Of a DNA stretch of 64,000 bases, positions 11,969 through 59,843 are shown one piece after another. The stretch lies in IMG/VR virus record IMGVR_UViG_3300033978_000437; one strand, given 5' to 3'. Origin of the DNA: a virus. The position numbers and the translations under genes were made by a program. Positions within the stretch are counted from its first letter, which is position 1, and every line of letters starts with the position of its first letter. Under the pieces are notes generated by a model that did no database searches, was not told the DNA's origin, and worked only from the letters and a program-made list of their open reading frames with translations.

Positions 11969-12916
11969 TTAGGTAAAGTCAACCCTAGCAAGACCAGAGG
12001 TATGACCAATGGTGCCACCTAAGGTTTCATAAGCAAAGAATTCGATAAAATACGCTTCACGACGGATGTACATCGTGGTGTCTTCTATCAGGTAGCTCTT
12101 GCCGATAAATTTAGGGTCAGCGAAATGATACATCGTACCAGTTGGGACAAGTCCCTTCTTAATAGTGATGATCCACTGAACACCCATAAATTCGCTGTAG
12201 GTCCAACCATTACGCATAATCTCTTCACTAAGATCGCCACCCATATCATTACGATTGAGTTTGGCAACTTCTTTGATAGTGATGTTATTAAGCAAAACGG
12301 AATGAACTTCAAGATTAGAAGGAGTGCCTGGCATAATCTTAAAGCTGTCCCACAGGTTGCTGCGGGTTACCCCACCGCTAAGCTGTTTGTACTGGATTAC
12401 TCCAGAAGTAGGAACAGTTGTTCCTGCGCCAACAAGAGCAGTGTTGACCGCAGAAATAAATTTGCCATCTTCTTCCGCTAACATATCCTTAATGGCATTA
12501 TCGGATAGGATTTGTCTGATATCCATATGCCATGTGCGAAGTTCATCCACATCCTTCGTGAATTTAGGGGTCACGATGCGGTCAAAGGTAACTCGGTACC
12601 TATCACCACGGATGTACAAGTTGGTAGGAAGCGTGGCAAAAGGAATTGAGATTGCTGCTGGAGAATCTGGTTCCTTGTCCACGATCTTTACAGGCTTGTC
12701 CGTGTCAACTTGACGATCAAGATCGTCGTTGCTGAGTGGGATTGGTGGCATAATACGTCTGTAGAAGCCATCTTCACGCATCTTAGTCCTAGTGAAGTCG
12801 TTGACAGCGTCAACAGCTTGCTTTTCTAGGTTAGAGTCACGGGAAGCCAATTTTTCAAAAATTGTCTGACTAAGAAGTTTGCTTTCTTCTTGAGTCATGA
12901 TACTAGAATTAGCCAT
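11969..12916 (-). CDS. Major capsid protein (HK97 fold)
   Basis: 315 aa; pattern RIVTPKFTKDVDELRT...DIRQILSDNAIKDMLAEEDGKFI; follows protease-scaffold-decoration; strong SD AAGGAGG; N-terminal LEKQA. Confidence 0.8.
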   Translation of the reverse strand: MANSSIMTQEESKLLSQTIFEKLASRDSNLEKQAVDAVNDFTRTKMREDGFYRRIMPPIPLSNDDLDRQVDTDKPVKIVDKEPDSPAAISIPFATLPTNLYIRGDRYRVTFDRIVTPKFTKDVDELRTWHMDIRQILSDNAIKDMLAEEDGKFISAVNTALVGAGTTVPTSGVIQYKQLSGGVTRSNLWDSFKIMPGTPSNLEVHSVLLNNITIKEVAKLNRNDMGGDLSEEIMRNGWTYSEFMGVQWIITIKKGLVPTGTMYHFADPKFIGKSYLIEDTTMYIRREAYFIEFFAYETLGGTIGHTSGLARVDFT

Positions 12917-15296: not shown

Positions 15297-16775
15297 CTAG
15301 TTAAATATTCGATTCTGACGCAGACTTAACTTAACTGTTGAGGTAAAGTCATTGTCTGTTGCAGCTAGCCTCCACAATCCTGCTAGCTTATACATTGCAT
15401 ATTCTTTGGCTAGGCTTTCACCTTCCAAATTACATGCAGCTGCTTTTTGACGAATCACAGGGGCAGCCTGCCCCCGGATACAACTCAAGAAACTTCGGTC
15501 TTCAACCGCAGATCGATGAAGCGAATGACTCGCAGTCAAAGTAGCGGCGAATGCCTTAGAACTTTCATTAGCTGTCTTGTCAATAAATGAACATGCACCA
15601 CGTTCAATCTCAATAGGCAAAGATTCATCCGCAGCCATTCTTGTATATATTTCTGGAAGTATTAAAGCTGCAGATTTCATATGCTCTTCGTGTCCTGCCA
15701 ATCGTGCATAATCAAATAATGTTAAAAATATTTTATTATCTGCCAACGCAGCTAACTGTTTGCTGCATTGCTCCGAACCTAGTTTCGCCAGCCTTTCTAT
15801 AGGGAAAGCTGAGGTTGCTACCGCTCGATAAGTACCAGCATCTCCCATCTCAGCAAATTTTTCAAGAGCAGCTAGCCCATATCCTAATTTAACTTGAGCA
15901 GTATTTTTCTCTGACCATAAACCATTTCTTCCCGATTGATAAAGAATTACATCCAGCGGAGCGGTAGAGGCAGAAGCCAACTTAATATAATCTTGCAATT
16001 CAAATATGCCGGAATCTGCTGCAGCTTTTGTTAAGTAATCCGCCCTAGCCCCATAAGCAATACGATCCGCAGGCCGAAATACTCGGCTAATATCGAACCA
16101 TACAGGGTTAGGATTGTCTACATGTAGGTGATGCACATCGCTGCCTACTTTTACTAATCTAGTAAGATTATCCTTACAGCCACCTGCTGCACACTTTTCT
16201 CTTGTGCAGTATTCCTCCCTAGTCTTAGCTGCGTGTTTGCAGAAGGAACAAACATCATGAGGAACACGGCAAGCCATGCTCACTGGAATGTCATCTCCCT
16301 TTGCAATCTTTTCTAATTCTGTGTCTGCAACAAAACCACCATTTCGATCTGCTGCAGATTTACTAGCATTCAACGCACAAAGCAACTCCACTCGACGCAT
16401 ATCTTCGTTGTAGGCAGAAGCTTTAACAACCCCATAGAAAGGGTCGCCTCGTTCTGCTTTGTTTTTATGATTGCGGAAGAACTTGGCAAATTTAACAAAG
16501 GTAGCATGATGATCTCGGCAAGTGGCTTCTTTAAAACCATCACCATTGCGGTTAGGGCCATAAGCTTCACTAGCACCTAATGCAATCAAATGCACAGGAA
16601 CCTCATCTTTGGCAAACTTGACATTGTCTAACTGAGGTAAGAAGGTATGACTAGCCCGCTTTAAAAAATCTTGTCGATCATTACCAATCAACCCACGACT
16701 GCTCACCTTGATCGGTGAAACGATTTGTTCTGCAAAATCCCAACCAGACGGAGAAACAAATTTAATCAGTGCCAT
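15297..16775 (-). CDS. Prohead (head maturation) protease with C-terminal extension
   Basis: HLIALGASEAYGPNRNGDGF, FFRNHKNK and IPVSMACRVPHDVCSFC...EEYC motifs typical of HK97-type prohead proteases with a Cys cluster; upstream of scaffold. Confidence 0.7.
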   Translation of the reverse strand: MALIKFVSPSGWDFAEQIVSPIKVSSRGLIGNDRQDFLKRASHTFLPQLDNVKFAKDEVPVHLIALGASEAYGPNRNGDGFKEATCRDHHATFVKFAKFFRNHKNKAERGDPFYGVVKASAYNEDMRRVELLCALNASKSAADRNGGFVADTELEKIAKGDDIPVSMACRVPHDVCSFCKHAAKTREEYCTREKCAAGGCKDNLTRLVKVGSDVHHLHVDNPNPVWFDISRVFRPADRIAYGARADYLTKAAADSGIFELQDYIKLASASTAPLDVILYQSGRNGLWSEKNTAQVKLGYGLAALEKFAEMGDAGTYRAVATSAFPIERLAKLGSEQCSKQLAALADNKIFLTLFDYARLAGHEEHMKSAALILPEIYTRMAADESLPIEIERGACSFIDKTANESSKAFAATLTASHSLHRSAVEDRSFLSCIRGQAAPVIRQKAAACNLEGESLAKEYAMYKLAGLWRLAATDNDFTSTVKLSLRQNRIFN

Positions 16776-23945: not shown

Positions 23946-26900
23946 TCATTTAGAACTTTCTGCCCATCCTCGATACTCCGCTAGATCTTCATTGTTAGTT
24001 CTCAATTGGGATTCTAGTTTCGCCCTTTGTTCTGGCGGAAGAGAAGTATCTCGAAGTTGTGCTTCAACTGCCACAATGTTTTCTTTAAGCCCATTAACTC
24101 GATTACGCATGTCCGTGCTAAACAAGCCCTTACCTGAAGAACCACCCTCTCGCTCGTAAGTACCCATCATCTGCTTACGCTGTGCCTGTCTATTTAATAA
24201 CTGCTCCTGCCTTGCTTGCCCCCCTGCGTCTAGCTCCCCCTTAGCTTTTAACTCTGCTAGTTCTGTGTCCGCAGCTGTAACCGAATTTTGCATGGCATCA
24301 CGGAATTTGTGTCCGCCACTACCAAACCAATTTTGTTGGCCTAGTCTCCAGTTAGCTGTTTCATCCGCTGTATTTCCTTGTCTAGTTTTAGCGTCTTGTA
24401 TTTGTGCTTTTAAATCTGCAGTACCTTCTAAATTCTGCGGTTTAGTCAAAGCTAATTGTGCTTCTAGACCTTTTTGCTTTTCTACTTCCATTGCATTAAC
24501 TTGCGTTTTGTCTGCCACCGAGGCACGGGAACGAGCATCAGTTCCAGTTACTTTGTCACGAATAGCTTCACCGGCCATCCCAGCCTGCTCCCCAAGCATC
24601 CCCGCTGTCTGAGTTGCACCCCCAGCTATTAGCTGCGCATTAGCCACTGGGTTAAGAGCTTGTGCAGGGGCTTGCCATGCTGTATGCAGCCCATCTTTAA
24701 ACGAAAGAATGTCTCTCCAGTTTTGTGCTGCATCATTGGTTGTATTATCCCAACCTTTATCTACTATGTCTGAACCAACGCTATAAGCTTCCATACCTGC
24801 ACCAAGGAATGGCAGAGCTTTTCCTACTCCTTTAGTAAGTGCTGAAAATCCTTTACCTACATAACCTGCAGGTGCTTTAGGTAATGGGGGTGGACCTTTA
24901 GGCAATGGCGGGGGGCTACCAGGCACAGGTGGTGGAGTTGTAGGAAAGGGGGGCGGGCTTCCGGGTATAGGAGGCGGAGTGGTAGGAAATGCAGGTGGTT
25001 TAGGTGCCATAATTGTATTTTTTATACCATTGTAGCCAATTGGAGCAGCATACCCAAATGCTGTACCTGTATCTGGACCCGAGCGGGCTGCTGGTTTTTC
25101 CTCTGTAGGCGAGTCTACTGTAGGAGCAGATGCTGTAGGGGCACTAGGCTGGGAACCGCCACCAAACATATTAAGCATGCTATTCCACATCCCACCTTGG
25201 TTTGCAGCTGGGGTAGGACTGCTGCTAGGTGCATTAGATTGCGGGCTTTGGTTTAAATTTTGTTGTCCTTGTCCGCTGTTGTTTTGGGCACCACCCCCAA
25301 ACATATTAAGCATATTACCCCACAACCCATTATTATTACTTGTAGCTAATCCTTGTGAGGGTCTCGAATTAAATAGCTGTTGAAAATTACCACCACCAGC
25401 CATCCCACCTAACATCATAAGCCCCATTAAAGGATTTTGATTTAACATCTGCCCAGCTTGCCCTGCAAAATTAGAATTATTTTGCATCAAATAATTAAAG
25501 TGATTAAATTGATCCGAATTTGAGGTTGGGGTAGGTGTAGATGCGGGCGGAGGGGCTAAAGCAGAAGTGCCCTGATCGCCCTTTGCGTCAGTATCTTTGT
25601 ATGTGTCATACAGTGATGGGGCGGGGGCAGGAGTAGGTGCAGGCGCAGGAGTAGGTGCAGGGGTAGGTGGCAGAGCTGGCATGATATTTGGGCTAAGGTC
25701 AGCTGCTGGGGTATAAGGATGAGGTTCAGTATTATTACGAGGGGCAACCCCGCCTTCCATATGTTCTGGGGAATTTGACCCATTCCTTGGGGCTGGTCCG
25801 CCCATATATTCTGTAGCAGGGGTATTGGGTATCGGTTTAGAGACGGCAGGAGGCTTAGAAACGGAAGGTGGTTTAGAAACATCTGGAACAGAGTCCATCG
25901 CAAGCTTAGTTTGGCCAGGGGTAAAACGACCGCCAAAAAAAGGAGCGTTGCTAGGTGCTATAGGCTTTAATGCAGGAGGAGTAGGAGTTGCAGGTAGCTC
26001 ATAGCTAGGTTTAGGTTTTATTACCGCATGGTCTTTACCTTCTCCAAAATCAAGACCCATTGCTAAACTAGGAACAAAGCTTGTACCTCGTTCTTCGCTG
26101 ATAGCCCCATGAGTCACAGAATCTAAGAAACTTTTCTTTAAACCAGACCCATACATTTGAGTCATCCAGTCAGGATCATGCTGCATTTGATACAAACCAC
26201 GAACCATGTGGGGCTCAAATGGCGGAGGGTTCTTGTGTACTGGAATTTCATTGATTTCAAAATCTTGAAAATTCTTAAGCATAGAAGGTCGAATTTTAGT
26301 ACCAATAGTGTAATGCAGTATAGGTCGTTCAAGATATTGACCTAGTGCTCGCTTAGGAGTTAATCGCTGGTGGTCTTCTCGTGGTTTGTAAGTGTGCTCA
26401 AGCGTAGAGTAAGGAACAATATCGTCAGGTACATGGTCATCTGTTTCTTCTGTCAGCCTTACATGGTTAATAAGACCTCGAGCTAATACCTCTATGTTTC
26501 GTCTGTGCCCGAACATTCCGCTGTCACCCATTGCCTTACGAAACTCATTAACAAAATAGCGTCTTCCTTCGCCTACCCCTTTGTGCTCTGTAATAGTAGC
26601 AGGGTTAGGAATTCCTGAGCTAATTACATCCCCAGCCTCTACCTCGTCTCCTTTTTTTACTTTAAGATCAAACCCAGCCCCTACATAATGTTGTTTATCT
26701 CCAATGGTTACATAGCTACCACCCGCAGGAGCTTCCTCAATACGCTGTACTACTCCATCTTTTAGTGCATGCGCTGCCCCGCCTTGCATCTTCTTTGGAA
26801 CTTGCACTAATTGGTTTAAATACTGGAAACCGCTGACAGCTTTTTCTTGACCTGCCACTCCACCCGAATGTTTTGCAGATAGCTGACCTTGGCTAATCGG

Positions 26901-27878
26901 TTCACTTAAAGCATGTGCAGCCTGTAACCCAACTTGCTCGCCAAGCCCTGGAAGCTTTCCAGTTTCCCGAATACCTACATCCCTAGAATAAACACCACCA
27001 TCGGGAGATCCACCTACGAGGGCAGATCGTACTAAGATTTTAGATGTGCCAAGCCGTTTTAAATGATTCAGTATTTTCGGAGTAAGGGGAGTGTTTCGAG
27101 CATAAGGGCCAACAGCCCGAGCTAGCAGTGCTCCTTCGTTATCTGCGTCATCAGTGTCTACTACCAATCCTCGAATAGGTGCATCTTCTGCCTCTTCGGC
27201 ATCTTCTCCGGTTACCACTAATCTATGGCTAGTTTGATTAAGTTGTTTGTTAAAAAATCCGGCATCTTGTGTGGCAAACTTAGTTGCCATAATACCTTTA
27301 CGTGCCCCATAGGTTCCGGCCCAATACTCGGCAGGGGACAACCCTTCGCTGTAGCTACGCAGTACAGGGATTGGAATCACATCATCCCGCTGATCCGAAT
27401 ACAGCATGTCTGAACCTAACAAACTAGTTAAATTCATAGACTTACCGCGCGTACCTGACATTACCTGCATCCCAAGCGGATTCTTATTTAGCAATGCCTC
27501 TGCAAGTACTTGTTTTTGTTGTTCTGGACTTTCTTTACCAACGGCACGAATAATCTGCTCATTTCGCTGCTGATCTGTCAAAGATTCGTCAGATAGAATG
27601 TTGGTAAGTGTTGCTCTAACTTTCTGGCGAGAAGCTAATGCCGCTTTGCTTACTTGCAAATGGCGAAGACCAAAAGACATGCCACCCTGCTCTTGAGCCA
27701 TGCTTTGGCCAAGACCACTTAGCTTAAAAGAAATGTCTTTATAACGCTCTGGGTGTTGTTGTGCCACTTGCTGTAATAAAGATTGCAGCCCTTTTTTATC
27801 TAGCACACGATGAGAGTCTCTCAACTCTTCCGGAAGGACATCATTAATTAACAGTTGTCCAACGGTCGTATTCAACAT
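23946..27878 (-). CDS. rpoC: Phage RNA polymerase beta-prime C-terminal subunit fused to a 650-aa low-complexity/helical tail
   Basis: Bridge helix GLSPAEYWAGTYGARKGIMATKFATQDAGFFNKQL; trigger loop AAHALSEPISQGQLSAKHSGG; RRNIEVLARGLI; tail starts at KLA-MDSV (aa 658-664). Confidence 0.9.
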   Translation of the reverse strand: MLNTTVGQLLINDVLPEELRDSHRVLDKKGLQSLLQQVAQQHPERYKDISFKLSGLGQSMAQEQGGMSFGLRHLQVSKAALASRQKVRATLTNILSDESLTDQQRNEQIIRAVGKESPEQQKQVLAEALLNKNPLGMQVMSGTRGKSMNLTSLLGSDMLYSDQRDDVIPIPVLRSYSEGLSPAEYWAGTYGARKGIMATKFATQDAGFFNKQLNQTSHRLVVTGEDAEEAEDAPIRGLVVDTDDADNEGALLARAVGPYARNTPLTPKILNHLKRLGTSKILVRSALVGGSPDGGVYSRDVGIRETGKLPGLGEQVGLQAAHALSEPISQGQLSAKHSGGVAGQEKAVSGFQYLNQLVQVPKKMQGGAAHALKDGVVQRIEEAPAGGSYVTIGDKQHYVGAGFDLKVKKGDEVEAGDVISSGIPNPATITEHKGVGEGRRYFVNEFRKAMGDSGMFGHRRNIEVLARGLINHVRLTEETDDHVPDDIVPYSTLEHTYKPREDHQRLTPKRALGQYLERPILHYTIGTKIRPSMLKNFQDFEINEIPVHKNPPPFEPHMVRGLYQMQHDPDWMTQMYGSGLKKSFLDSVTHGAISEERGTSFVPSLAMGLDFGEGKDHAVIKPKPSYELPATPTPPALKPIAPSNAPFFGGRFTPGQTKLAMDSVPDVSKPPSVSKPPAVSKPIPNTPATEYMGGPAPRNGSNSPEHMEGGVAPRNNTEPHPYTPAADLSPNIMPALPPTPAPTPAPAPTPAPAPSLYDTYKDTDAKGDQGTSALAPPPASTPTPTSNSDQFNHFNYLMQNNSNFAGQAGQMLNQNPLMGLMMLGGMAGGGNFQQLFNSRPSQGLATSNNNGLWGNMLNMFGGGAQNNSGQGQQNLNQSPQSNAPSSSPTPAANQGGMWNSMLNMFGGGSQPSAPTASAPTVDSPTEEKPAARSGPDTGTAFGYAAPIGYNGIKNTIMAPKPPAFPTTPPPIPGSPPPFPTTPPPVPGSPPPLPKGPPPLPKAPAGYVGKGFSALTKGVGKALPFLGAGMEAYSVGSDIVDKGWDNTTNDAAQNWRDILSFKDGLHTAWQAPAQALNPVANAQLIAGGATQTAGMLGEQAGMAGEAIRDKVTGTDARSRASVADKTQVNAMEVEKQKGLEAQLALTKPQNLEGTADLKAQIQDAKTRQGNTADETANWRLGQQNWFGSGGHKFRDAMQNSVTAADTELAELKAKGELDAGGQARQEQLLNRQAQRKQMMGTYEREGGSSGKGLFSTDMRNRVNGLKENIVAVEAQLRDTSLPPEQRAKLESQLRTNNEDLAEYRGWAESSK

Positions 27879-44620: not shown

Positions 44621-45991
44621 TTACTTGCCCTTCTGGGGAAAACCCACACCCGTGGGCTTCCCCGTGTAACTATTGAGGTTTACCTGCAATCTTGCTACTG
44701 GGCCAGTATCGTGATCCCATACAAAGGCCATAGCACCCCGTTGCTGCCAGTTAAATCCTTTTAATCGATGCCAAGCATTAGGAGGAGTTAAAGCGGGTAA
44801 ATACTCAACGCCAACCCCTTGCTCCTCCATTACTACAGGACTTCCAGTTCCTTTGCGGTGCTGGTCTCCTAAATGCCACTCCCTAAAGCTAGTGTCTGCC
44901 CAGTGCTCACGGCATTCGTGTGCCATCAAGGCAGCCAATCGAATGGACTTAATATGATGCCCATGATCAAACCCAATCAAGTTAGTACCGAAACGATAAA
45001 ACTTATAAGGGCTTGGAGTTACATCTACTGTAACATTATCGTCGTTGCGATAGTAGGCTTTTAACACCTGTCCTAGGCTAAACGAAGCTTGCTGGTCGTG
45101 ATTACCAGAAACTTGAATTACCCTAACCGGAGCTAGTGCCGTAAGCTTGTCCACCATGGTAACTGCAAGCTTAATTGCATTCTCGTACACATGCTGGAAG
45201 GACAGACCTTCTGGCTGAAGTGTTCCCCTCGTGGTGGTGTGCATTGCGTTATCATGGTGGAGGAAGTCATTCCCAAAAGGAAAGACAATCTCTTCAAACT
45301 TACCATACAAGTGGGCTTGGGCTAGCAGCGAGTCAATTGCCCACAGACACATGCGACTGCATTCCTCTAAGCTCCAATTGTGATCGCTTTCACCCTTGTA
45401 GCATTGCATGCCATAGTGCGGATCCATGATCGATACTTCAAGGGCACGACGAGCTTTCTGCTTCTTGTCTTTAGGATATTTAATCTTCAGCGTAATAGGC
45501 GAGTTATCTTCTAGCTGCTGAAGCACACGATCTACCGCCACTCTTTCATCTCGCTTACGCCTTAGCTGTACCTTAATCTGCTTTAGCCCAGTCTTCCAGA
45601 TCCCGCTGGTGGGCTTAGCCCCTGCAACTTCCCAGTTGTTGACGGTGATGCGTTCCACCTCATACAACTCCATGTCAATTCCGGATTTTAAAAGAAGTTC
45701 TTCTGCAGTGTTAATCTGGTCGCCCACGTAATCAACTTCAGTAAATTGACCTCGTTCATTGATAGTTAGTTTTTCTTTGGCAGACTTTGCAATATTCTGA
45801 CCAGGCTTTGGCTTTATGCTGGTCATTGCCCGCATGCGTTCCATTAGCCCAGCTTTTTTAAGCCTTGCACCAACAGTGGAACGATAAGGTATACCTAGTG
45901 CTGTGGCTGTTTTAGCCAAGCTACCACCACAGCTTATTGCCGTATCAAAGATAACTTGAATGGGAATATCATACTTAGGCTTAACTGGCAT
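44621..45991 (-). CDS. Calcineurin-like metallophosphoesterase with N-terminal HTH-like segment
   Basis: IMDPHYG, FGNDFLHHD, VSGNHD, GFDHGH, WHLGDQH; SD GGAGG. Confidence 0.8.
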   Translation of the reverse strand: MPVKPKYDIPIQVIFDTAISCGGSLAKTATALGIPYRSTVGARLKKAGLMERMRAMTSIKPKPGQNIAKSAKEKLTINERGQFTEVDYVGDQINTAEELLLKSGIDMELYEVERITVNNWEVAGAKPTSGIWKTGLKQIKVQLRRKRDERVAVDRVLQQLEDNSPITLKIKYPKDKKQKARRALEVSIMDPHYGMQCYKGESDHNWSLEECSRMCLWAIDSLLAQAHLYGKFEEIVFPFGNDFLHHDNAMHTTTRGTLQPEGLSFQHVYENAIKLAVTMVDKLTALAPVRVIQVSGNHDQQASFSLGQVLKAYYRNDDNVTVDVTPSPYKFYRFGTNLIGFDHGHHIKSIRLAALMAHECREHWADTSFREWHLGDQHRKGTGSPVVMEEQGVGVEYLPALTPPNAWHRLKGFNWQQRGAMAFVWDHDTGPVARLQVNLNSYTGKPTGVGFPQKGK

Positions 45992-46094: not shown

Positions 46095-46889
46095 TTAATT
46101 AAGCTGCGGAAGTATACCTGTAGGAGCTACTTTTTTTGAAAAACCACCTAGTAGTTTTTTACCATAATGCGCAAGTAAAGGGGTTGCGGCTAGAGCTCCG
46201 TAAGTAGGTAATCCTATAGAAGCACCCCAGCGAGACTGACCAAGTCTTTTTAATAAAGCACCACCTCGCACACTTGCATCTACTTCTGCGGCAAGTAATG
46301 GAATGTGTGCGGAGCTACCAAGCAACGCAGCATTTCTTGAATTGCCCTCGTCACTGGACAACAAAGCTCCCCAAGTACCACCAACAGTACCCAACCTGCT
46401 TGCAATTTGGCCCGACGAAAGATTATTCGGTGATAGTAATTTTTTAGGTGTTAAAGAATGCCCTATTTCGTGTGCAAGGATAGCGGGTGATTCATTTACC
46501 CCAGTCCTTATCAAATTGCTTCTGGTATCATAAGAATAACCTAGATTATTAGATTGAGGTGCAAAGTCTATACCTCTAGATAAAGCCAATCTTTTTAAAG
46601 CTTGCGTAGCCTTCACATTCTCTGGCTTAGGACTAAAATTGAAGAGCTGCGGGTTATTGTGTGCGGCATAATGCTTAGATGGATTTGCATTTCCAGATGT
46701 GGCTTTTTCAAAAGGAGTCATTACTTTGTGTGCATATGCGGTTGTTGCTAAGAGGGGAGTCAGCAACGCAGGAGGGATTCCAAGCCCCCACAAGTAGTCT
46801 AAGCCCCGAGATGCTGGTTTAGCTGAGTCTTCCAAAGTATTAGAAGCAGCAGTCTTTGCCAATGCAATTATCGAGGCATAGTGCGTCAT
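46095..46889 (-). CDS. Membrane-associated zinc metallopeptidase-like protein with KTA leader
   Basis: AILAHEIGHS (HExxH), downstream LLAAEVDASVRGG, hydrophobic Gly-rich segments; leader IIALAKTA; start taken at ATG 46889. Confidence 0.6.
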   Translation of the reverse strand: MTHYASIIALAKTAASNTLEDSAKPASRGLDYLWGLGIPPALLTPLLATTAYAHKVMTPFEKATSGNANPSKHYAAHNNPQLFNFSPKPENVKATQALKRLALSRGIDFAPQSNNLGYSYDTRSNLIRTGVNESPAILAHEIGHSLTPKKLLSPNNLSSGQIASRLGTVGGTWGALLSSDEGNSRNAALLGSSAHIPLLAAEVDASVRGGALLKRLGQSRWGASIGLPTYGALAATPLLAHYGKKLLGGFSKKVAPTGILPQLN

Positions 46890-46928
46890 TGTTTGCCCAA
46901 AAGTTGTCAACATTTTCAACAGAAAAAC

Positions 46929-47684
46929 TTAGACAGTAGCCCTACCCCGTGTACCCGGATTATATAGTGGGTAGTTTGGATTAGGATAATACGGGTTTAG
47001 CGGAGGAAAGGACGGAGTGTAATTAGGATTTGTGTTAGGCGCGTTATACTGTGTACCAGGGGCTACTGAATCTGGATTGATTTCCATAATTATAGGCGGT
47101 TTCTGGCGTACATAAGGTTGCAGCCCAGTCCCAGGTTTAGCACTTTCTATCACTGTTCTAGATTTATTTACACCAGGGCTTGAGTAATCAGTTGTGGAAT
47201 CAGAGTTGAACGCATCAATACCCCTACGAAACTTATTTAGCACAGCGCCTATTCCACTTTCGGATTCATTGTATCTCTTTTTAGCTGCTTCAATTACATC
47301 GCCTGCGAATGGCAGACCAATTTCTTTGATACCAAGGGCACCAGCACCGCCACCAATTATGCCCGCAGCGGGATTAGCTCTAGTAAAGTCAACTGCCGTT
47401 CTTCCAGCTACTCTAGTTCCCTTGCTTATACCAGAACCTAAACCTTTAAGCCCAGCCCAGCCCATCCCGCCAGCACCATATAATAAATTCCCTAAAAGCT
47501 TTAAAATAGCTTTCTTCTCTATCGATGCTTGCTTCTTCAACCCAAGGTAATAAGCACATGCTTGCTTGTTCCTTGTAGTAGGATACTCTGCAGCTTGCTT
47601 AATCAAGCTGGCAGGATTATAGCGAGCAAGCTCTGCATTTAAAATACGCAAACGATTAGCTTGTTTAATCAATAAATTTGACAT
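46929..47684 (-). CDS. Glycine-zipper protein with KxA-rich leader
   Basis: IKQA, IKQA, NKQA, KKQA, EKKA then LLYGAGGMGWAGLKGLG and GIIGGGAGALG; ATG 47684 with SD GAGG. Confidence 0.6.
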   Translation of the reverse strand: MSNLLIKQANRLRILNAELARYNPASLIKQAAEYPTTRNKQACAYYLGLKKQASIEKKAILKLLGNLLYGAGGMGWAGLKGLGSGISKGTRVAGRTAVDFTRANPAAGIIGGGAGALGIKEIGLPFAGDVIEAAKKRYNESESGIGAVLNKFRRGIDAFNSDSTTDYSSPGVNKSRTVIESAKPGTGLQPYVRQKPPIIMEINPDSVAPGTQYNAPNTNPNYTPSFPPLNPYYPNPNYPLYNPGTRGRATV

Positions 47685-47709
47685 GATATCCCTCATAAGA
47701 AACTAAGTA

Positions 47710-54100: not shown

Positions 54101-55621
54101 CTAAAGTTCCTTAAGCAAATCTAGAAACTTGTCATTTAGCTGCTGCTTACGATTACCCGCCGCAATGAGGTAATCATCGGTAGCAGATAAAGGATTAACT
54201 TTAATTCCGATGTAGCGTAGTAGAGACTTTAATCGACTTGGGGCTGTTCTAGCTATATATCTCTCTATCTTTACTTTCCTATCTGCAAGAGGAAGGTGGG
54301 CATGACTGTCATACCTTAATCCTCTACCTTCACTCTGCTCAGACCTAACATTATTCCAATGCGGATCCAATAGCTGCATAAGCTTCGTACCCTTAAACGA
54401 AAGTCCCTCAGTACCAGACGGACCAAGCAACGCTACCTTCAGCTTATCTGAGTTGTAGTCGTCTACCAGCTTCTTTCGTTGTTTGTCTGATAGTGCACCT
54501 GTGAAGGACGCTGCAGGGATACCAGCTTTGTCCAACGCAGCTTGATAAGGGTTCAGTCCTGACTCAATAAAGTTAGAGAAGATGAGAGCTTTACCCTTGG
54601 GATCCTTTTTAACCAACTCATTAACTCTTCTAAATGCTTCTGTTAGCTTTGGGGAACTGTTGAACGCAGCCATAGGGTCAGCTTTGTCTTGTGTGAATGT
54701 GCTAGTAGATAAACCCAGCTGTCTTGGCCCAGTCAAAAAGCTAACCATCTTCTTAGACTCTGCATCACTCAGCGGGTAGTTTAATTGCAACTTCCATTTG
54801 AGCAAGGCGGGTAGCTTACCATACATTTGTGAGTTTAGGTCCGTCTGATCCCTAGTCATCTCTGTAATCACATCTTCCCTATTGATCTCTGCTTGAGGCT
54901 TAGCTGGTGCAAAGTAATCTACCTTGCCTCTTAAGTTGTTCTTTAACTCCTCTACATTCTTTAAACCCGGATCGGGTGCCTTTAGATTAAAGAAACGGCG
55001 ATACAGCGAAGGTTGTGGGTCATTGTCTACATACCTAGCACTAAACTCTTCTGGAGTCGTATCCTTGCCGGTAAGCACGCTGTAAGGCACTGCAAAATCC
55101 GCAGGCGAGTTCACAATAGGAGTACCGCTTAGCATCACCACTTGTTTTGCTTTTCTAGCTGCGTCTAACAAATTCTGCGTCTGCGCAGATTGAGCGTTTC
55201 TAAACCGATGTGTTTCATCAATAAGCAACGAATTAGGATTCGCTATAGGAAGTCCTCTGCCTAGCCCAGTATGGCTCATAATGCTGCTAGGCACTGCCGT
55301 ATCTTGGTCGATGAACTTCTCTTGCTCTTTCCTTAGATTGGTACGGAGAGCAGCGGGTACGATTGCGGTGTAGGGGAGCTTCGAGCTTTCAGCAGCCGCT
55401 AAACCACCTAAGGTCTTACCCGAGCCCAGCCCTTGATACAGTAGCAATCTAACCTTGTCCTCAGTAGCAAGCTGATTTTGCACATTGCGTACAACTCTTT
55501 TTTGATGAGGTTGCAGCTCAATTCCAGAATTTAAATCTGCACGCTTGGTGAAACTCAACTTAGCAGCTTGCGTTGCTAAATAGGCAATTGCGTCAAAGGT
55601 ATTACTGGAGCGTTTAAACAC
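54101..55621 (-). CDS. SNF2-family helicase/ATPase with N-terminal leader
   Basis: LQPHQ, YQGLGSGKT, LLIDETH, MLSGTP, QSEGRGLR; leader ends TKRA (aa 28); no Cys. Confidence 0.88.
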   Translation of the reverse strand: MFKRSSNTFDAIAYLATQAAKLSFTKRADLNSGIELQPHQKRVVRNVQNQLATEDKVRLLLYQGLGSGKTLGGLAAAESSKLPYTAIVPAALRTNLRKEQEKFIDQDTAVPSSIMSHTGLGRGLPIANPNSLLIDETHRFRNAQSAQTQNLLDAARKAKQVVMLSGTPIVNSPADFAVPYSVLTGKDTTPEEFSARYVDNDPQPSLYRRFFNLKAPDPGLKNVEELKNNLRGKVDYFAPAKPQAEINREDVITEMTRDQTDLNSQMYGKLPALLKWKLQLNYPLSDAESKKMVSFLTGPRQLGLSTSTFTQDKADPMAAFNSSPKLTEAFRRVNELVKKDPKGKALIFSNFIESGLNPYQAALDKAGIPAASFTGALSDKQRKKLVDDYNSDKLKVALLGPSGTEGLSFKGTKLMQLLDPHWNNVRSEQSEGRGLRYDSHAHLPLADRKVKIERYIARTAPSRLKSLLRYIGIKVNPLSATDDYLIAAGNRKQQLNDKFLDLLKEL

Positions 55622-55626
55622 TTAGT

Positions 55627-58600
55627 TTACCTTCCTTGAGTCGCCCAACTTGGTAGATCGGAAGAAAACCTAGAAGTAGCATAGGTGTTAGAAGGAGCCT
55701 TAGGTGCAGGAGCTTGTGCCATAGCAGTTGGTTTAACTGGATTAATTATATTAACACCGCTAGGTGACCAAGTTTTCCCGCTAGCTAGGGCCACACGCTG
55801 TTCTTTTTTAATGTCAAACATCGCTTTGTTGAGTGCAGTATGTTGAGGATCTTCTCCAGGCGGTGCAACATAAGTATTAGAAATGGATGCCGGTGCTTTA
55901 GCTAGTTCGGCAGAGCGTGGTCCATTTTTAGCATAGTGCTCTCCACCTTCGTTCATGGAGCCCTCTGGCAACCCTAGTTGCTTCTCTTTCTCTCTTCGCT
56001 CTCCACTAATGTCTATAGGCTTCCAAGTATTTGCGGGCTTAGGTGTAGCAGTTCTAAAACTTCCGCTAGTTGCGCTTGCTCGTGAATTACCAGAAGCACC
56101 ACGCTGCTGGTTAAATGCACCAGTGTTCGCATCAATGTTTGTTGTCACATTAGTAGGGCCGGGTTGTGTCTGCAAATCACCACGATAGAAGTTCTTACCA
56201 TTCCTTGTTTTTTGAGTTCCTGAATCGTAGGTAGAGGCCCCAGTTAGAATATTACCCATGCCACCATACTGAGCCCCATTCAATATTGAAGAGCCAAGAT
56301 TAGCTGCTGCAGCATTTCCGGGAGTTAAATAGCCGGGGGTTTCTGGCGCAAAATTAGAAGGGGGTGAAGCTTCAGGATTAGAGTCAATCAAATTAGTTGA
56401 AGGTAAGTTTTTGGGTGTAAAAGTAGCAGTATCGGGTTGAATTTTACCTCCGCTAAAAACTCCTTGGTGCGTGCCATTACCAACACCACCTATAGCGTTT
56501 TGTAGCTGCTCCACCTTAGTCCTATCTGTAGCCATATCATTAAAGTCTTCTTTAAACATGGAGCTATTACTAAGACCATTGCGTCTAAACGCAGGATGGT
56601 CACGAAGGCTACTAATAGGTGCAGAAGGAGGCACAGTACCGCCTTTTGGAGTGAAAGCTTGACCTGATTGCGCTGGGGCAGTCCTAAGCAAAGGATATGG
56701 TAACCTGCCTTCTGCTCCGTTTAGATACTGCGAGCCAAGCCCAGTATAGGGTATTGGTGGAGTAGCTGCAGGGGGAGTAAAGTTGTAAGTAGGGTTTTCA
56801 ACTCTATCTGGGAATACATGCCCACCCCAGCTATGCGTACCATTCCCAGTTGGGTTAGGAATACCTGAGGCAGCTCTAACTCTTGCAGCCTGATCTTTCA
56901 TTCTAGCTGTATCCTGTTCATTTAAAGCTACTACTCTGTTTAAGTAAGATCCTCCAGCTTGAGTCGCTGCCTGCTTAGCTAATGCAGCTATATAATCACT
57001 CGATTGTTTACCTATGTAAGGCTTACCAATCAGAGAAGGTAAAATTCCGGATTTTGGAAGACTAGCGTAGGGAGTAGCCTCGGGAGTAAGAGCAGGTAAC
57101 ACATTTGAGTTGAGAGCTTTGCGTATCTTGTCTACCATACTTTGGGTAGCTGCTTCTGAATTTGCAGCATCTTGACTACCACCTAGATAACGCATTGCCA
57201 GCCCGCTCCCTACTACGGGTAAGGATAACATTGCACCTATCCTAGACTTAGCTGCTAATCTTCCTAGATTTGAAACTCCCCAATTTAAAATTCTTTTAGG
57301 AGCAGCAATAGCGTTGCTTAAATTACCATAAGAATTTGTTCTAAATGCTAAAGATGTTGGATCCCCAAAGGAACTAGTCATACTCTGTCCGAGCGGAGTT
57401 CTATGCGCATAATCCACAAGCTTTAACTGTTGATCTCTGCTCAGACTCTCGAGTCCTCTGCCTAGACTGCTTGCAAATTCTGGCTTAGATTTGGCTAGTT
57501 GAAGCAGCTCGTCTTGCATTGCATTACGTGTAAGCCCATACTTATCCCCAGGTAAAACTGGAGCTATTGAGTTAAGTATGCGTTCTTTAGATGCATCCGC
57601 TAGCCCAGTTAAATGCTGTTTTAAAGCATCACCGGATAGGTTGTTGCCGTTAGAAATTAGCTTATTTTTTATAAAATCTCCTCGGCTATTTAACTTATTT
57701 ATTATCTCGTCTTGAGGTGCTAGGGACTTCTGACTAAACTCATTCATTCTATCATGACGCAGCTGCAATCTAGGTCTAAACTTAGAAGCCCATGCATCTT
57801 CCCTTTCGCCCAGCAACCCTTTACCTCGTAACCTTTCAATAAGGTTCTCCACTTTAGACTTTACTTTCCCCTGCATGGTATCCATTTTGCGAGCTATAGC
57901 TGCCCTGTCTGCTACAGCTTTTGCTGTATTGACATCGTTACGCGCAGCTGCTGTTCCTAACAGCGAAATTTTGTTGTTTCGAGCTGCCTCGTGTAGCGCA
58001 AATTGTCGCTGAAACATCGGTCCCTGTATCGCATCATCTCCGAGAAGTTCTGCACCCAACTGTGCATAAGCTGCAGCTGGCCCTTTATTGAATTGTCCGT
58101 AGTGCTCTGATAGTGAAGGACTCCATTTCATATTAGGCTGAGATCCGTCAGCTATCATTGTGGTAATAGGATTCTTGTAAACCTGTTCAATCATATCGCG
58201 CCCAATAAGTTTAGTACCATCGGGCCTCGTCCATACAGGTTGTTGAATTAAGTCCGTACCATGCTCAACATATGCTTTCAATTTTTCAGCAGCATTTAAT
58301 GTTGGAGAATTCATTTTCGTATTAAATTGATCCACTCGGTTCAACAAATTAGGTTCAAACTGGTCATACCGCTGCAGAGCTGGAATGCCTTTGTTCGCCC
58401 CGTAATTCACCGCTAAAGAGCCAGCACCTGCAATACCGCCTCCGGCCGCAGTCAAGTTACCAAGTCCTGTCATTATCCCAGATTGAGAAGGAGCAGAATT
58501 GATTACAAAGATAGGTTGTTGTTGTGGTTGCTGCATCCACTGCTGCTGGGGCTGTTGTGGCTGCTGCGGAGAATAAACAGAATCCATCGCTGATTTAGCT

Positions 58601-59505
58601 AATAAAGCAATTTGTTCAAATGCATCACTGCCACACTTCCACTTACGCAGTGCTTTGTTGATGCGGCTATCGGGATCATTAGCCGTTGCACTAGAAGTGA
58701 GCTTAGCCTTCATACCACCCATGCGTGCACAGAAGCTATCTTTACGAGATCCACCTTCGGGCTGAGGTCGTTTGATGTCGTGTCCTTGTGCCTTTAAGCT
58801 GGCTCGACCTTTATCATTTAAACCGCCTTCGGGATTCTTACCTTCAGCAGTTTGCCAAGCTGCACCGCTTTGCTTCTCTGCCTCTTTCTTCTTACCTGTA
58901 GGCCGACAAGATCCGGGAGTTAAAGCTTTAGTGCCTGGTACTCGTTCGTAACCTTCCCAGCATTGCGCCTTCTTCTCAGAGATCGCCGTTACCTTGTCCC
59001 AGTTCTTAGAATCTGGATAGTCTTCGTCCCCAGGCTTGGCAGTAGTTTCGCCCCTGCGCTTCTTAGCTCTTATGTTGGCCCAAAGGCCCGGCCGTACTGC
59101 TGCTACCTTAGCTAACAACGCAGCAAATCTTGAAGGCTGGCTAGTCTGAACACTGCTTTTCTTTTCAACCTTTTCCATTTTTGAGTAGTACTTAGGCTCT
59201 TCGGTAAGATGATCCACCGCAATCTCTGTAGCTACATCCGTATCATTAGTATGTTCTTTTTCTTCTTTAATTCCGGAATTTAACTCTGCTTTATCTAAGT
59301 CCGCAGGATTCTTATTATCACCAACTCCGCCTTTCAGCTTATTGGTGATTCCTAGTGCCTTCTTCTCTGTTTGGTCTTCTACATGCTCTGGCAACTTCTT
59401 ACCTCCTGTAGCTTCGGACCATTCAGAGCAGTCCCACGAACCTGCCTGACCTTTGCCTTTGAGAAGGTAACATAACTTACGCTGAGCATCAGATTTGAAT
59501 GGCAT
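55627..59505 (-). CDS. 1292-aa polyprotein: five small N-terminal modules plus two long Cys-free domains
   Basis: Modules separated by EKKA, EKKS, AKVA, EKKA, EKQS, AKSA; later GKQS/AKQA. Confidence 0.75.
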   Translation of the reverse strand: MPFKSDAQRKLCYLLKGKGQAGSWDCSEWSEATGGKKLPEHVEDQTEKKALGITNKLKGGVGDNKNPADLDKAELNSGIKEEKEHTNDTDVATEIAVDHLTEEPKYYSKMEKVEKKSSVQTSQPSRFAALLAKVAAVRPGLWANIRAKKRRGETTAKPGDEDYPDSKNWDKVTAISEKKAQCWEGYERVPGTKALTPGSCRPTGKKKEAEKQSGAAWQTAEGKNPEGGLNDKGRASLKAQGHDIKRPQPEGGSRKDSFCARMGGMKAKLTSSATANDPDSRINKALRKWKCGSDAFEQIALLAKSAMDSVYSPQQPQQPQQQWMQQPQQQPIFVINSAPSQSGIMTGLGNLTAAGGGIAGAGSLAVNYGANKGIPALQRYDQFEPNLLNRVDQFNTKMNSPTLNAAEKLKAYVEHGTDLIQQPVWTRPDGTKLIGRDMIEQVYKNPITTMIADGSQPNMKWSPSLSEHYGQFNKGPAAAYAQLGAELLGDDAIQGPMFQRQFALHEAARNNKISLLGTAAARNDVNTAKAVADRAAIARKMDTMQGKVKSKVENLIERLRGKGLLGEREDAWASKFRPRLQLRHDRMNEFSQKSLAPQDEIINKLNSRGDFIKNKLISNGNNLSGDALKQHLTGLADASKERILNSIAPVLPGDKYGLTRNAMQDELLQLAKSKPEFASSLGRGLESLSRDQQLKLVDYAHRTPLGQSMTSSFGDPTSLAFRTNSYGNLSNAIAAPKRILNWGVSNLGRLAAKSRIGAMLSLPVVGSGLAMRYLGGSQDAANSEAATQSMVDKIRKALNSNVLPALTPEATPYASLPKSGILPSLIGKPYIGKQSSDYIAALAKQAATQAGGSYLNRVVALNEQDTARMKDQAARVRAASGIPNPTGNGTHSWGGHVFPDRVENPTYNFTPPAATPPIPYTGLGSQYLNGAEGRLPYPLLRTAPAQSGQAFTPKGGTVPPSAPISSLRDHPAFRRNGLSNSSMFKEDFNDMATDRTKVEQLQNAIGGVGNGTHQGVFSGGKIQPDTATFTPKNLPSTNLIDSNPEASPPSNFAPETPGYLTPGNAAAANLGSSILNGAQYGGMGNILTGASTYDSGTQKTRNGKNFYRGDLQTQPGPTNVTTNIDANTGAFNQQRGASGNSRASATSGSFRTATPKPANTWKPIDISGERREKEKQLGLPEGSMNEGGEHYAKNGPRSAELAKAPASISNTYVAPPGEDPQHTALNKAMFDIKKEQRVALASGKTWSPSGVNIINPVKPTAMAQAPAPKAPSNTYATSRFSSDLPSWATQGR

Positions 59506-59528: not shown

Positions 59529-59843
59529 TTAACGGCGCAACAATGCACTGAGGATTTGTTTATCTAAAGATGTCTTCCCTAACCCAACCTCAGTGTTTGG
59601 AGGTGGAGAAGTACTTGCATTAGGGAGCAAAGCTGGATTAGCAAGCTTCTTAGGTTGCCGAGCAAATTCATAGCCCGCCATACCACCTAGACCAGCAGCT
59701 GCAGTAGTAAGCGGGGCACGAGATGCCGCTCTAAATAAGGGGCCTAACAATGCAGCAATGGCACGTTTTTCTCTAGTGCTGGCAATAGCTTGTTTTTCTA
59801 AGCGGTTAAGCATATTGCGTAGCTTTGCGGTTTTGTAAAACAT
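59529..59843 (-). CDS. Small single-TM protein with KxA leader
   Basis: YKTA, EKQA, EKRA then AIAALLG...AAAGLGGMAGY. Confidence 0.6.
   Translation of the reverse strand: MFYKTAKLRNMLNRLEKQAIASTREKRAIAALLGPLFRAASRAPLTTAAAGLGGMAGYEFARQPKKLANPALLPNASTSPPPNTEVGLGKTSLDKQILSALLRR

Follow-up and report, generated by a model that had tools for sequence, protein, structure and literature searches.

Does the large reading frame at one locus of an uncultured marine jumbo phage encode a string of small proteins destined for the virus head, and which enzyme would release them? The window analysed here is a 64,000-nucleotide stretch of the phage DNA. The original prediction placed a polyprotein of small phage modules, separated by Lys-x-Ala/Ser sites, at positions 58588–59505. 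The string is present, but this range covers only residues 1–306 of the protein, and 986 further residues follow.

Overall architecture of the candidate polyprotein

The gene is a real open reading frame on the minus strand with an ATG start. It encodes a protein of 1,292 residues and ~140 kDa starting with M-P-F-K-S and is composed of the following features.

55627..59505, minus strand: whole reading frame, candidate head-cargo polyprotein precursor; relatives at 55–88% identity
59356..59505, minus strand: M1, aa 1–50, with a Met-Pro-Phe-Lys-Ser start, two Cys and an E-K-K-A end; no Pfam family
59155..59355, minus strand: M2, aa 51–117, DUF5661, acidic, with an E-K-K-S end; PF18905 match at aa 75–116
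59101..59154, minus strand: leader-like segment, aa 118–135, with an A-K-V-A end; predicted helical at low confidence
58966..59100, minus strand: M3, aa 136–180, G-L-W-A-N-I type, basic, with an E-K-K-A end
58867..58965, minus strand: M4, aa 181–213, a C-W-x-G-Y ... C loop with two Cys and an E-K-Q-S end
58588..58866, minus strand: M5, aa 214–291 (DUF6321, basic, two Cys), plus leader-like aa 292–306 with an A-K-S-A end
56968..58587, minus strand: body segment, aa 307–846, beginning M-D-S-V, Q/G-rich, with an A-K-Q-A end; no family or Atlas lead
55630..56967, minus strand: C-terminal segment, aa 847–1292, common to relatives with different N-terminal parts

A query of IMG/VR with the whole protein matched a single locus. 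An assembly artefact is ruled out, because the identical protein occurs on 18 contigs.

Residues 1–306 comprise five tiny modules in one string, each of which is encoded singly by other ocean phages. The five predicted modules are all there, but residues 118–135 are a leader-like segment ending in a site and contain no module. The same element serves as the N-terminal leader in the stand-alone relatives P0007–P0009, P0248, and P0249.

Residues 307–1292 are explained by no Pfam or PHROGs family, Atlas cluster, or paralog in the genome. The body segment is mostly absent from the reading frame of the nearest relative (L196), which has no counterpart of aa 304–820. Another relative (P0250) has only the C-terminal segment in common, placed after the same leader-plus-site.

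The five modules

Two of the five modules are members of Pfam families, as had been proposed from recall for the second and fifth. PF18905 (DUF5661) matches aa 75–116 with 35.8 bits against a curated cut-off of 27, covering profile positions 20–65 of 65. PF19846 (DUF6321) matches aa 222–289 over the whole profile (1–72) with 54.2 bits against a cut-off of 28.5. Pfam holds no family for M1, M3, or M4. PHROGs families without a described function match aa 135–291 and sub-ranges of it. In the literature searched, neither DUF6321 nor DUF5661 is named in any paper, and no function is described.

The predicted module products range from 3.7 to 9.8 kDa. M3, M4, and M5 are basic with predicted pI values of 9.2–9.8, M1 is near neutral (7.8), and M2 is acidic (5.1). 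M1 also opens many metagenomic proteins and polyproteins of the family, and M2 has one separate IMG/VR homolog, of aa 69–116. An AlphaFold2 (AF2) model of aa 120–295, which is of too low quality (pLDDT 59.5, pTM 0.26) to support a fold search, runs a helix through the linker at aa 124–137.

The modules behave as independent units. The 306 residues match 7,866 cluster representatives (clusters at 50% identity) and 506 sequenced phage records, mostly of marine cyanophages. The separate homologs anticipated for the modules occur in stand-alone, permuted, and fused forms. DUF6321 is encoded by stand-alone genes of ~81 residues in podovirus-type contigs, and M3-M4-M5 forms stand-alone proteins in cyanophages and metagenomes. 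Module orders elsewhere include M3-M4-M5, M5-M3-M4, and Cys-rich-M3-M5-M4. In other relatives, modules are fused with an SNF2 helicase or with HExxH-motif proteins. Among the relatives at 55–88% identity, some lack M4 and M5, some lack M1 and M2, and some lack all five; most, though not all, of these whole-module gains and losses among close relatives fall at linkers.

Two genes flank the polyprotein gene.

59529..59843, minus strand: separate 104-residue gene just upstream, with its own leader, in which E-K-x-A occurs twice, and a hydrophobic Gly-rich module
54101..55621, minus strand: SNF2-type helicase gene adjoining the polyprotein gene, fused to the same modules in relatives

The 104-residue product is 47% identical over 83 residues to residues 298–379 of relative P0004, where its homolog is an internal polyprotein module placed after DUF6321. 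In L190 and L180, SNF2 is joined to a Cys-rich module and DUF6321.

The K-x-A/S sites

All six predicted Lys-x-Ala/Ser sites are located as written. The [E/A]-K-x-[A/S] motif starts at aa 47, 114, 132, 177, 210, and 303, and once more at aa 843. In aa 1–306, six sites are observed against 1.5 expected (p ~0.002, 2,000 shuffles). The looser K-x-[A/S] is not enriched in these residues on shuffling (9 against 7.8 expected), and [E/A]-K-x-[A/S] is not enriched in aa 307–1292 (1 site against 1.6 expected). The aa 843 site, the only one in the last 986 residues, lies ~20 residues past the point, aa 821, at which homology breaks off, within a shared stretch that opens with a leader ending in the site.

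A K-x-[A/S/G] lies at most 11 residues upstream of the module in 59 of 62 contexts for M3, 47 of 47 for M4, and 71 of 71 for M5, as compared with 24% of random windows; K-x-A carries little information as a motif, and E, K, A, and S are abundant in the linkers. Leaderless module copies begin M-A-K-S/T-P-A-W, so the K-x-A could in part be a feature of the module. A signal-peptidase (A-x-A) reading of the sites is rejected, since they lie in charged stretches without a hydrophobic core, four of the six being E-K-K/Q-A/S.

Candidate head protease and capsid protein

Two genes of the head region carry the same motif.

15297..16775, minus strand: candidate prohead protease, 492 residues; AF2 model with pLDDT 71.5, fold match to T4 gp21
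11969..12916, minus strand: major capsid protein, 315 residues, K-x-A at aa 32–34; match to PDB 6wkk ‘Gp27 major capsid protein’, E 6.3e-7

The 6wkk entry is presumably the capsid protein of phage G. The protease gene lies upstream of an acidic scaffold-like reading frame and the capsid gene. PHROGs and Pfam contain no family for most reading frames of the head and tail regions, including a putative 843-residue ‘portal’ and a putative 401-residue ‘scaffold’.

The best match of the protease model among 48,161 chains is T4 gp21 (5jbl_A; Z 8.8, rmsd 2.8, 129 of 165 residues), a domain match seen only with an exhaustive aligner. The next matches are the proteases of VZV (Z 6.0) and HCMV (Z 4.4). 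A Foldseek search of the whole model against the PDB returned helical noise only. At the sequence level, single-protein and profile searches gave no match among PDB sequences, and Pfam gave none at E values up to 1. Comparison of the protease family with a cyanophage gp21 alignment by hhalign produced only a 7-residue match with a probability of 0.6%. In the family alignment, H62, H103, S166, D174, and D228 are invariant, and the catalytic His and Ser, with or without Asp, may be among them.

The protease residues F37, K39, and A41 are also invariant and lie at the edge of the folded domain, and the N-terminal K-x-A of the capsid protein is invariant across its family. Prohead proteases such as those of T4, phiKZ, and SPN3US typically have their motif retained both in the capsid protein and at a boundary of the protease (PMC5694885).

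Linker chemistry and protease class

The original prediction was that linkers are matched to the head protease of each phage if T4-like phages carry the modules between Glu-ending sites, and the comparison of protease classes bears this out. K-x-[A/S/G] immediately precedes the DUF6321 module in all 24 records encoding a protease of this phage's type, whereas all 15 records with a protease of the T4 gp21 type (PF03420) have Glu at this position, mostly as [L/I/V/F]-x-E, and only 1 of the 15 fits K-x-[A/S/G]; the sequence sets are related and phylogenetically clustered, and these and the other counts represent non-independent events. The two protease classes are mutually exclusive among the records, and no PF03420 protease was found in this genome or 23 relatives. 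The CW module displays the same split by protease class, with [L/I/V/F]-x-E in the majority of its 45 T4-like contexts. A third type of linker, L-A-S-G-G, also occurs. The sites of T4 Alt are ITE and LTE (PMC5694885).

In the T4-like set, twelve of 21 short reading frames begin with M-K-T-Y/F-x-x-F...E leaders, and most stand-alone copies have leaders that resemble the capsid targeting sequence of T4 (PMC8442874), in which residues 4, 7, 8, and 10 are key (PMC9026906). PSSM7_194 of cyanophage P-SSM7 is a homolog with a T4-type targeting leader. Other cultured T4-like cyanophages with DUF6321 proteins include S-RIM8 and S-CAM4. Podovirus copies are leaderless, and the podoviruses are without a head protease. 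Both codes predict an identical mature N terminus, 3–5 residues before a conserved Trp.

Linker chemistry thus matches protease class across phage families. The change of linkers with the type of head-maturation protease suggests that the string is cleaved into pieces that are packaged in the head.

Proposed mechanism and alternatives

On balance, the reading frame is probably a precursor of head-internal cargo that is cut by the phage's own maturation protease, its pieces being packaged and injected. In the precursor, the five small modules would form an array at the N terminus, with two large segments behind it, and each unit would end in a short leader-like stretch and a K-x-A/S site. It would be taken into the prohead during head assembly, where the 492-residue protease would cleave on the C-terminal side of the Ala or Ser in K-x-[A/S]. 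The freed small proteins would remain with the DNA and be delivered into the cell along with it, as T4 internal proteins are. We infer cleavage, the exact bond, packaging, and any effector role after injection. By analogy only, the modules may bind DNA or, like T4 IPI, counter host defences. Counting against this reading, the literature on the T4-GC119 gene presents it only as hypothetical and as part of a possible mobile cassette, rather than as a virion protein (PMC3037559).

Alternatively, the product could be an uncut multi-domain virion protein, with the K-x-A leaders acting as scaffold or core binding signals or as plain flexible linkers. In its favour, the AF2 model continues a helix through the aa 124–137 linker, and targeting by the T4 sequence is separable from processing (PMC9026906). 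However, the residue two positions after Lys is nearly fixed, being Ala in 145 of 177 cases (82%), Ser in 15%, and Gly in 3%, as would suit the pocket of a protease. In phages with a gp21-type protease, the corresponding junctions conform to the known gp21 cut motif, and K-x-A recurs in the capsid N terminus and at the domain edge of the protease. We consider an uncut protein unlikely.

The linker differences could also reflect lineage history only, the linker DNA serving mainly as microhomology for module shuffling and the protease being unrelated. The leader-plus-site elements at aa 132, 303, and 843 indeed have stretches of 17–24 nt in common at 75–82% identity, most module gains and losses map to linkers, and the sequence sets are clustered phylogenetically. 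Yet within each family, unrelated junctions (M3, M4, M5, and the N-terminal leaders) follow one rule, the rule of the T4-like set is the experimentally known one of gp21 and the targeting sequence, and copies from the protease-less podoviruses carry no leader. We give this explanation little credence. Cutting by a different enzyme, such as a metallopeptidase or host protease, could be imagined from the HExxH-motif proteins fused to modules in some relatives, but is improbable given that both the capsid protein and the boundary of the assemblin-fold protease itself retain the motif.

Comparison with known systems

The proposed precursor resembles the T4 internal proteins IPI, IPII, IPIII, and Alt, which are small, mostly basic cargo proteins, vary among related phages, and carry a short leader that is terminated by a protease site. 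The predicted M3–M5 products are likewise small and basic, and module homologs in T4-like cyanophages have T4-like leaders and Glu junctions (PMC8442874, PMC9026906). The two systems display several differences. Many cargo units lie here in one reading frame, which opens with M-P-F-K-S rather than with an M-K-T-Y-Q-E-F-I-A-E-type targeting sequence, and the leader sequence is another one. K-x-A/S is the candidate site here, in contrast to the [L/I]-x-E cut by gp21 in T4, and the protease of this phage has no PF03420 match.

The inner-body and ejection proteins of phiKZ and SPN3US, which are processed by the proteases gp175 and gp245, also belong to jumbo phages. Numerous head proteins of these phages are processed at a short motif, in some cases at more than one position, and enzymes are packaged as well, for example the virion RNA polymerase (PMC5694885). 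Their proteases cut after Glu (S/A/G-x-E, A-x-E), unlike the K-x-A/S junctions here, and neither shared small modules nor shuffled-module arrays are described there. A paper on RNA-polymerase-encoding Caudovirales (PMC7481178) does not discuss proteases or proteolysis, and the capsid proteins it covers match a different Pfam family.

The predicted fold of the candidate protease is also that of herpesvirus assemblin, as indicated by the VZV and HCMV matches. Assemblin cuts after Ala and before Ser in a [V/L/I]-x-A motif. Herpesviruses belong to a different branch of the virus realm and the cargo here is no scaffold; in addition, Lys replaces the hydrophobic residue two positions before the candidate cut. 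From sequence, we place the locus with the internal-protein systems of T4 and phiKZ, as a further form in which the candidate cleavage code would be new.

Implications of the proposed head cargo

Host defences encounter the proteins injected along with phage DNA before any other viral factor, and such proteins are known for only a few cultured phages. A linker code that follows protease type, if true, would allow head cargo in uncultured phages to be listed from sequence only, would point to a novel cleavage specificity within an ancient protease fold, and would explain the movement of cargo genes between unrelated phages. More tentatively, and with slightly more doubt than belief, we suggest that the DUF6321, DUF5661, GLWANI, CW-loop, and MPFKS micro-proteins form a pool common to at least three build types of ocean phage, with leaders and linkers rewritten for the head protease of each lineage, and that K-x-A is a previously undescribed specificity of the gp21/assemblin fold in a widespread family of uncultured jumbo phages. 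If so, the packaged proteome of this phage may include an SNF2 helicase and the C-terminal part of RNA polymerase beta-prime.

A polyprotein of small modules

The window lies in an IMG/VR virus record of 178,753 bp with an estimated completeness of 83%, in which almost every gene is on the same strand. A rearranged multisubunit RNA polymerase, a ribonucleotide reductase, a baseplate wedge protein and a capsid protein similar to PDB entry 6wkk ('Gp27 major capsid protein', E 6.3e-7) together indicate a divergent jumbo myophage. The main features are:

55627-59505, - strand, polyprotein ORF of 1,292 aa (58588-59505 being its first 306 codons)
59529-59843, 104-aa gene just upstream of the polyprotein
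54101-55621, separate SNF2 gene, the next gene downstream of the polyprotein
15297-16775, 492-aa ORF (candidate prohead protease), upstream of an acidic scaffold-like ORF and the capsid gene
23946-27878, - strand, RNA polymerase beta-prime C-terminal protein

Residues 1-306 comprise five modules: M1 (MPFKS), M2 (DUF5661), M3 (GLWANI), M4 (CW-loop) and M5 (DUF6321). The two families named in the original prediction are recovered above the curated Pfam cut-off, DUF5661 at aa 75-116 and DUF6321 at aa 222-289. M1, M3 and M4 have no Pfam family, and neither DUF name is mentioned in the literature searched.

The motif [E/A]-K-x-[A/S] starts at aa 47, 114, 132, 177, 210, 303 and 843. Six copies fall in aa 1-306, where shuffling predicts 1.5 (p about 0.002), and one in the last 986 residues, where it predicts 1.6. 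Shuffling shows no excess of bare K-x-[A/S], so the counts by themselves are modest evidence. A further caution is the brevity of the motif, in linkers that abound in E, K, A and S. Site placement is the stronger evidence.

Genome-wide, [E/A]-K-x-[A/S] occurs 112 times against 78.5 expected. In several further ORFs, K-x-A follows a hydrophobic stretch within the first 10-40 residues (window 46929-47696, 46095-46919 and 44621-45991, - strand). Among the products are a 255-aa protein with two copies of the motif, one of 274 aa and an SbcD-like exonuclease.

A candidate prohead protease

The 492-aa protein has no sequence match in Pfam or PDB. Among 48,161 chains, the best match of its AF2 model, built on 20 relatives (pLDDT 71.5), is T4 gp21 (Z 8.8, rmsd 2.8, 129 residues). 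Next comes varicella-zoster virus protease (Z 6.0), with the cytomegalovirus and KSHV proteases lower. Relatives occur in at least 138 IMG/VR stretches, on contigs mostly of 100-235 kb, indicating a large uncultured family. F37, K39 and A41 are invariant in this family and lie at the boundary between the disordered N-terminus and the folded domain. The capsid protein likewise contains a K-x-A at aa 32-34, kept in all distinct family sequences examined. Both sites would suit a prohead protease that trims the capsid protein as well as itself, without proving it.

Profile comparison of the family with cyanophage gp21 gave a single match of 7 residues (E 0.09), K-V-S-S-R-G-L (protease aa 23-29, window 16689-16709) against G-V-S-S-R-G-M. 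The match falls outside the part that superposes on gp21, in the N-terminus, which is modelled with low confidence, and is possibly due to chance.

Linkers match the protease class

Linkers had been predicted to follow each phage's head protease. Among 48 records of the protease family searched (class K), 23 contain DUF6321, one each and nearly always within a large ORF. Class E comprises 16 records with a PF03420 (T4 gp21-type) protease, 11 from IMG/VR and 5 sequenced cyanophages. PF03420 is absent from the 24 class K records (the 23 and the window), and relatives of the 492-aa protein are absent from the 16 class E records. K-x-[A/S/G] ends 3-5 residues before the conserved Trp of DUF6321 in 24/24 class K records, versus a Glu at that distance in 15/15 readable class E junctions; the records are related and the counts are not independent events. 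K-x-[A/S/G] is found near one of the 15 class E junctions. The split recurs at CW-module junctions, which read K-x-A in class K and mostly [L/I/V/F]-x-E followed by Lys/Ala among 45 distinct contexts of the T4-like set. The latter agree with the gp21 sites ITE and LTE of T4 Alt (PMC5694885). The predicted correspondence is supported.

Short ORFs of the T4-like set start M-K/R-x-Y/F-x-x-F/L...E in 12 of 21 cases, as in P-SSM7 PSSM7_194 (MKTYSQFIEE). In T4, the capsid targeting sequence reads MKTYQEFIAE (PMC8442874); targeting requires its residues 4 and 7, and processing its residues 8 and 10 (PMC9026906). The literature searched ties this sequence to cyanophages only in one passing review mention. 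Podovirus records encode neither PF03420 nor a 492-aa-type protease, and their module copies are leaderless.

Across a wider metagenomic set, K-x-[A/S/G] lies at most 11 residues upstream of M3, M4 and M5 in 59/62, 47/47 and 71/71 distinct contexts, respectively, against 24% of random windows of the same proteins. The small residue is Ala in 145/177. Since leaderless copies start M-A-K-S/T-P-A-W, one Lys close to the module could be part of the module itself.

Some metagenomic proteins (P0357, P0359, P0372) show a third junction, L-x-L/M-A-S-G-G, before DUF6321, perhaps that of a third protease class.

The modules are independent units

Separate homologs of the modules exist, as predicted. The 306 residues match 7,866 cluster representatives overall, in proteins of 117-1,591 aa; the near length band holds 2,395 matching proteins. 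Module order is M3-M4-M5 in the polyprotein, and M5-M3-M4 or Cys-rich-M3-M5-M4 elsewhere. The best IMG/VR matches to DUF6321 are mostly stand-alone genes of ~81 aa beginning right at the module. The upstream 104-aa gene is 47% identical over 83 aa to an internal module that follows DUF6321 in the relative P0004. In two family genomes (L190:1-1728, L180:1156-3225), K-x-A linkers join a Cys-rich module and DUF6321 to the C-terminus of an SNF2 helicase.

Whole-ORF relatives (55-88% identity in the body) lack M4 and M5, M1 and M2, or every module. These changes are located at linkers in most cases; one relative (P0244) has a deletion beginning within M4. Only aa 1-303, 821-914 and 1155-1291 have a counterpart in the ORF of the nearest genome. 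The first homology break coincides with the aa 303 site, and the second with the beginning of the leader that closes with the aa 843 site.

The leader-plus-site elements at aa 132, 303 and 843 (window 59099-59115, 58595-58618 and 56966-56998, respectively) show DNA similarity over 17-24 nt (75-82%), a possible microhomology for module exchange. A metallothionein-like, Cys-rich module (about 8-9 Cys/25 residues) is often found upstream of the GLWANI module in relatives (P0020-P0030, P0067, P0119) and is not in the polyprotein. Some very long proteins of 581-1,550 aa (P0291, P0306, P0312, P0343, P0373) begin with a leaderless DUF6321.

Proposed processing

Support is good for the modular build and for linkers that track the protease class; that the pieces are cleaved and packaged, and what they do, we infer. 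By analogy with T4, each unit would consist of a leader-like stretch, a site and cargo. The precursor would enter the assembling core and be cleaved at K-x-A/S by the candidate protease. The small, mostly basic products (predicted 3.7-9.8 kDa) would stay with the DNA, together with two large segments. The cut is placed after the small residue because the K-x-A and Glu codes then predict an identical mature N-terminus. We regard the whole chain of events as somewhat probable.

The RNA polymerase beta-prime C-terminal protein may be head cargo too, as its sequence hints. Its polymerase part ends K-L-A (window 25899-25907) and continues M-D-S-V into a tail of ~650 aa with much P, Q, N and G. The polyprotein body also starts M-D-S-V, there after A-K-S-A.

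Capsid targeting and protease processing of varied cargo are already known in T4 and the phiKZ group. What appears new is the stringing of shuffled micro-modules into a single reading frame, the candidate K-x-A specificity for a gp21/assemblin-type protease fold, and the common modules of T4-like cyanophages, this jumbo family and podoviruses, with a linker rule specific to each.
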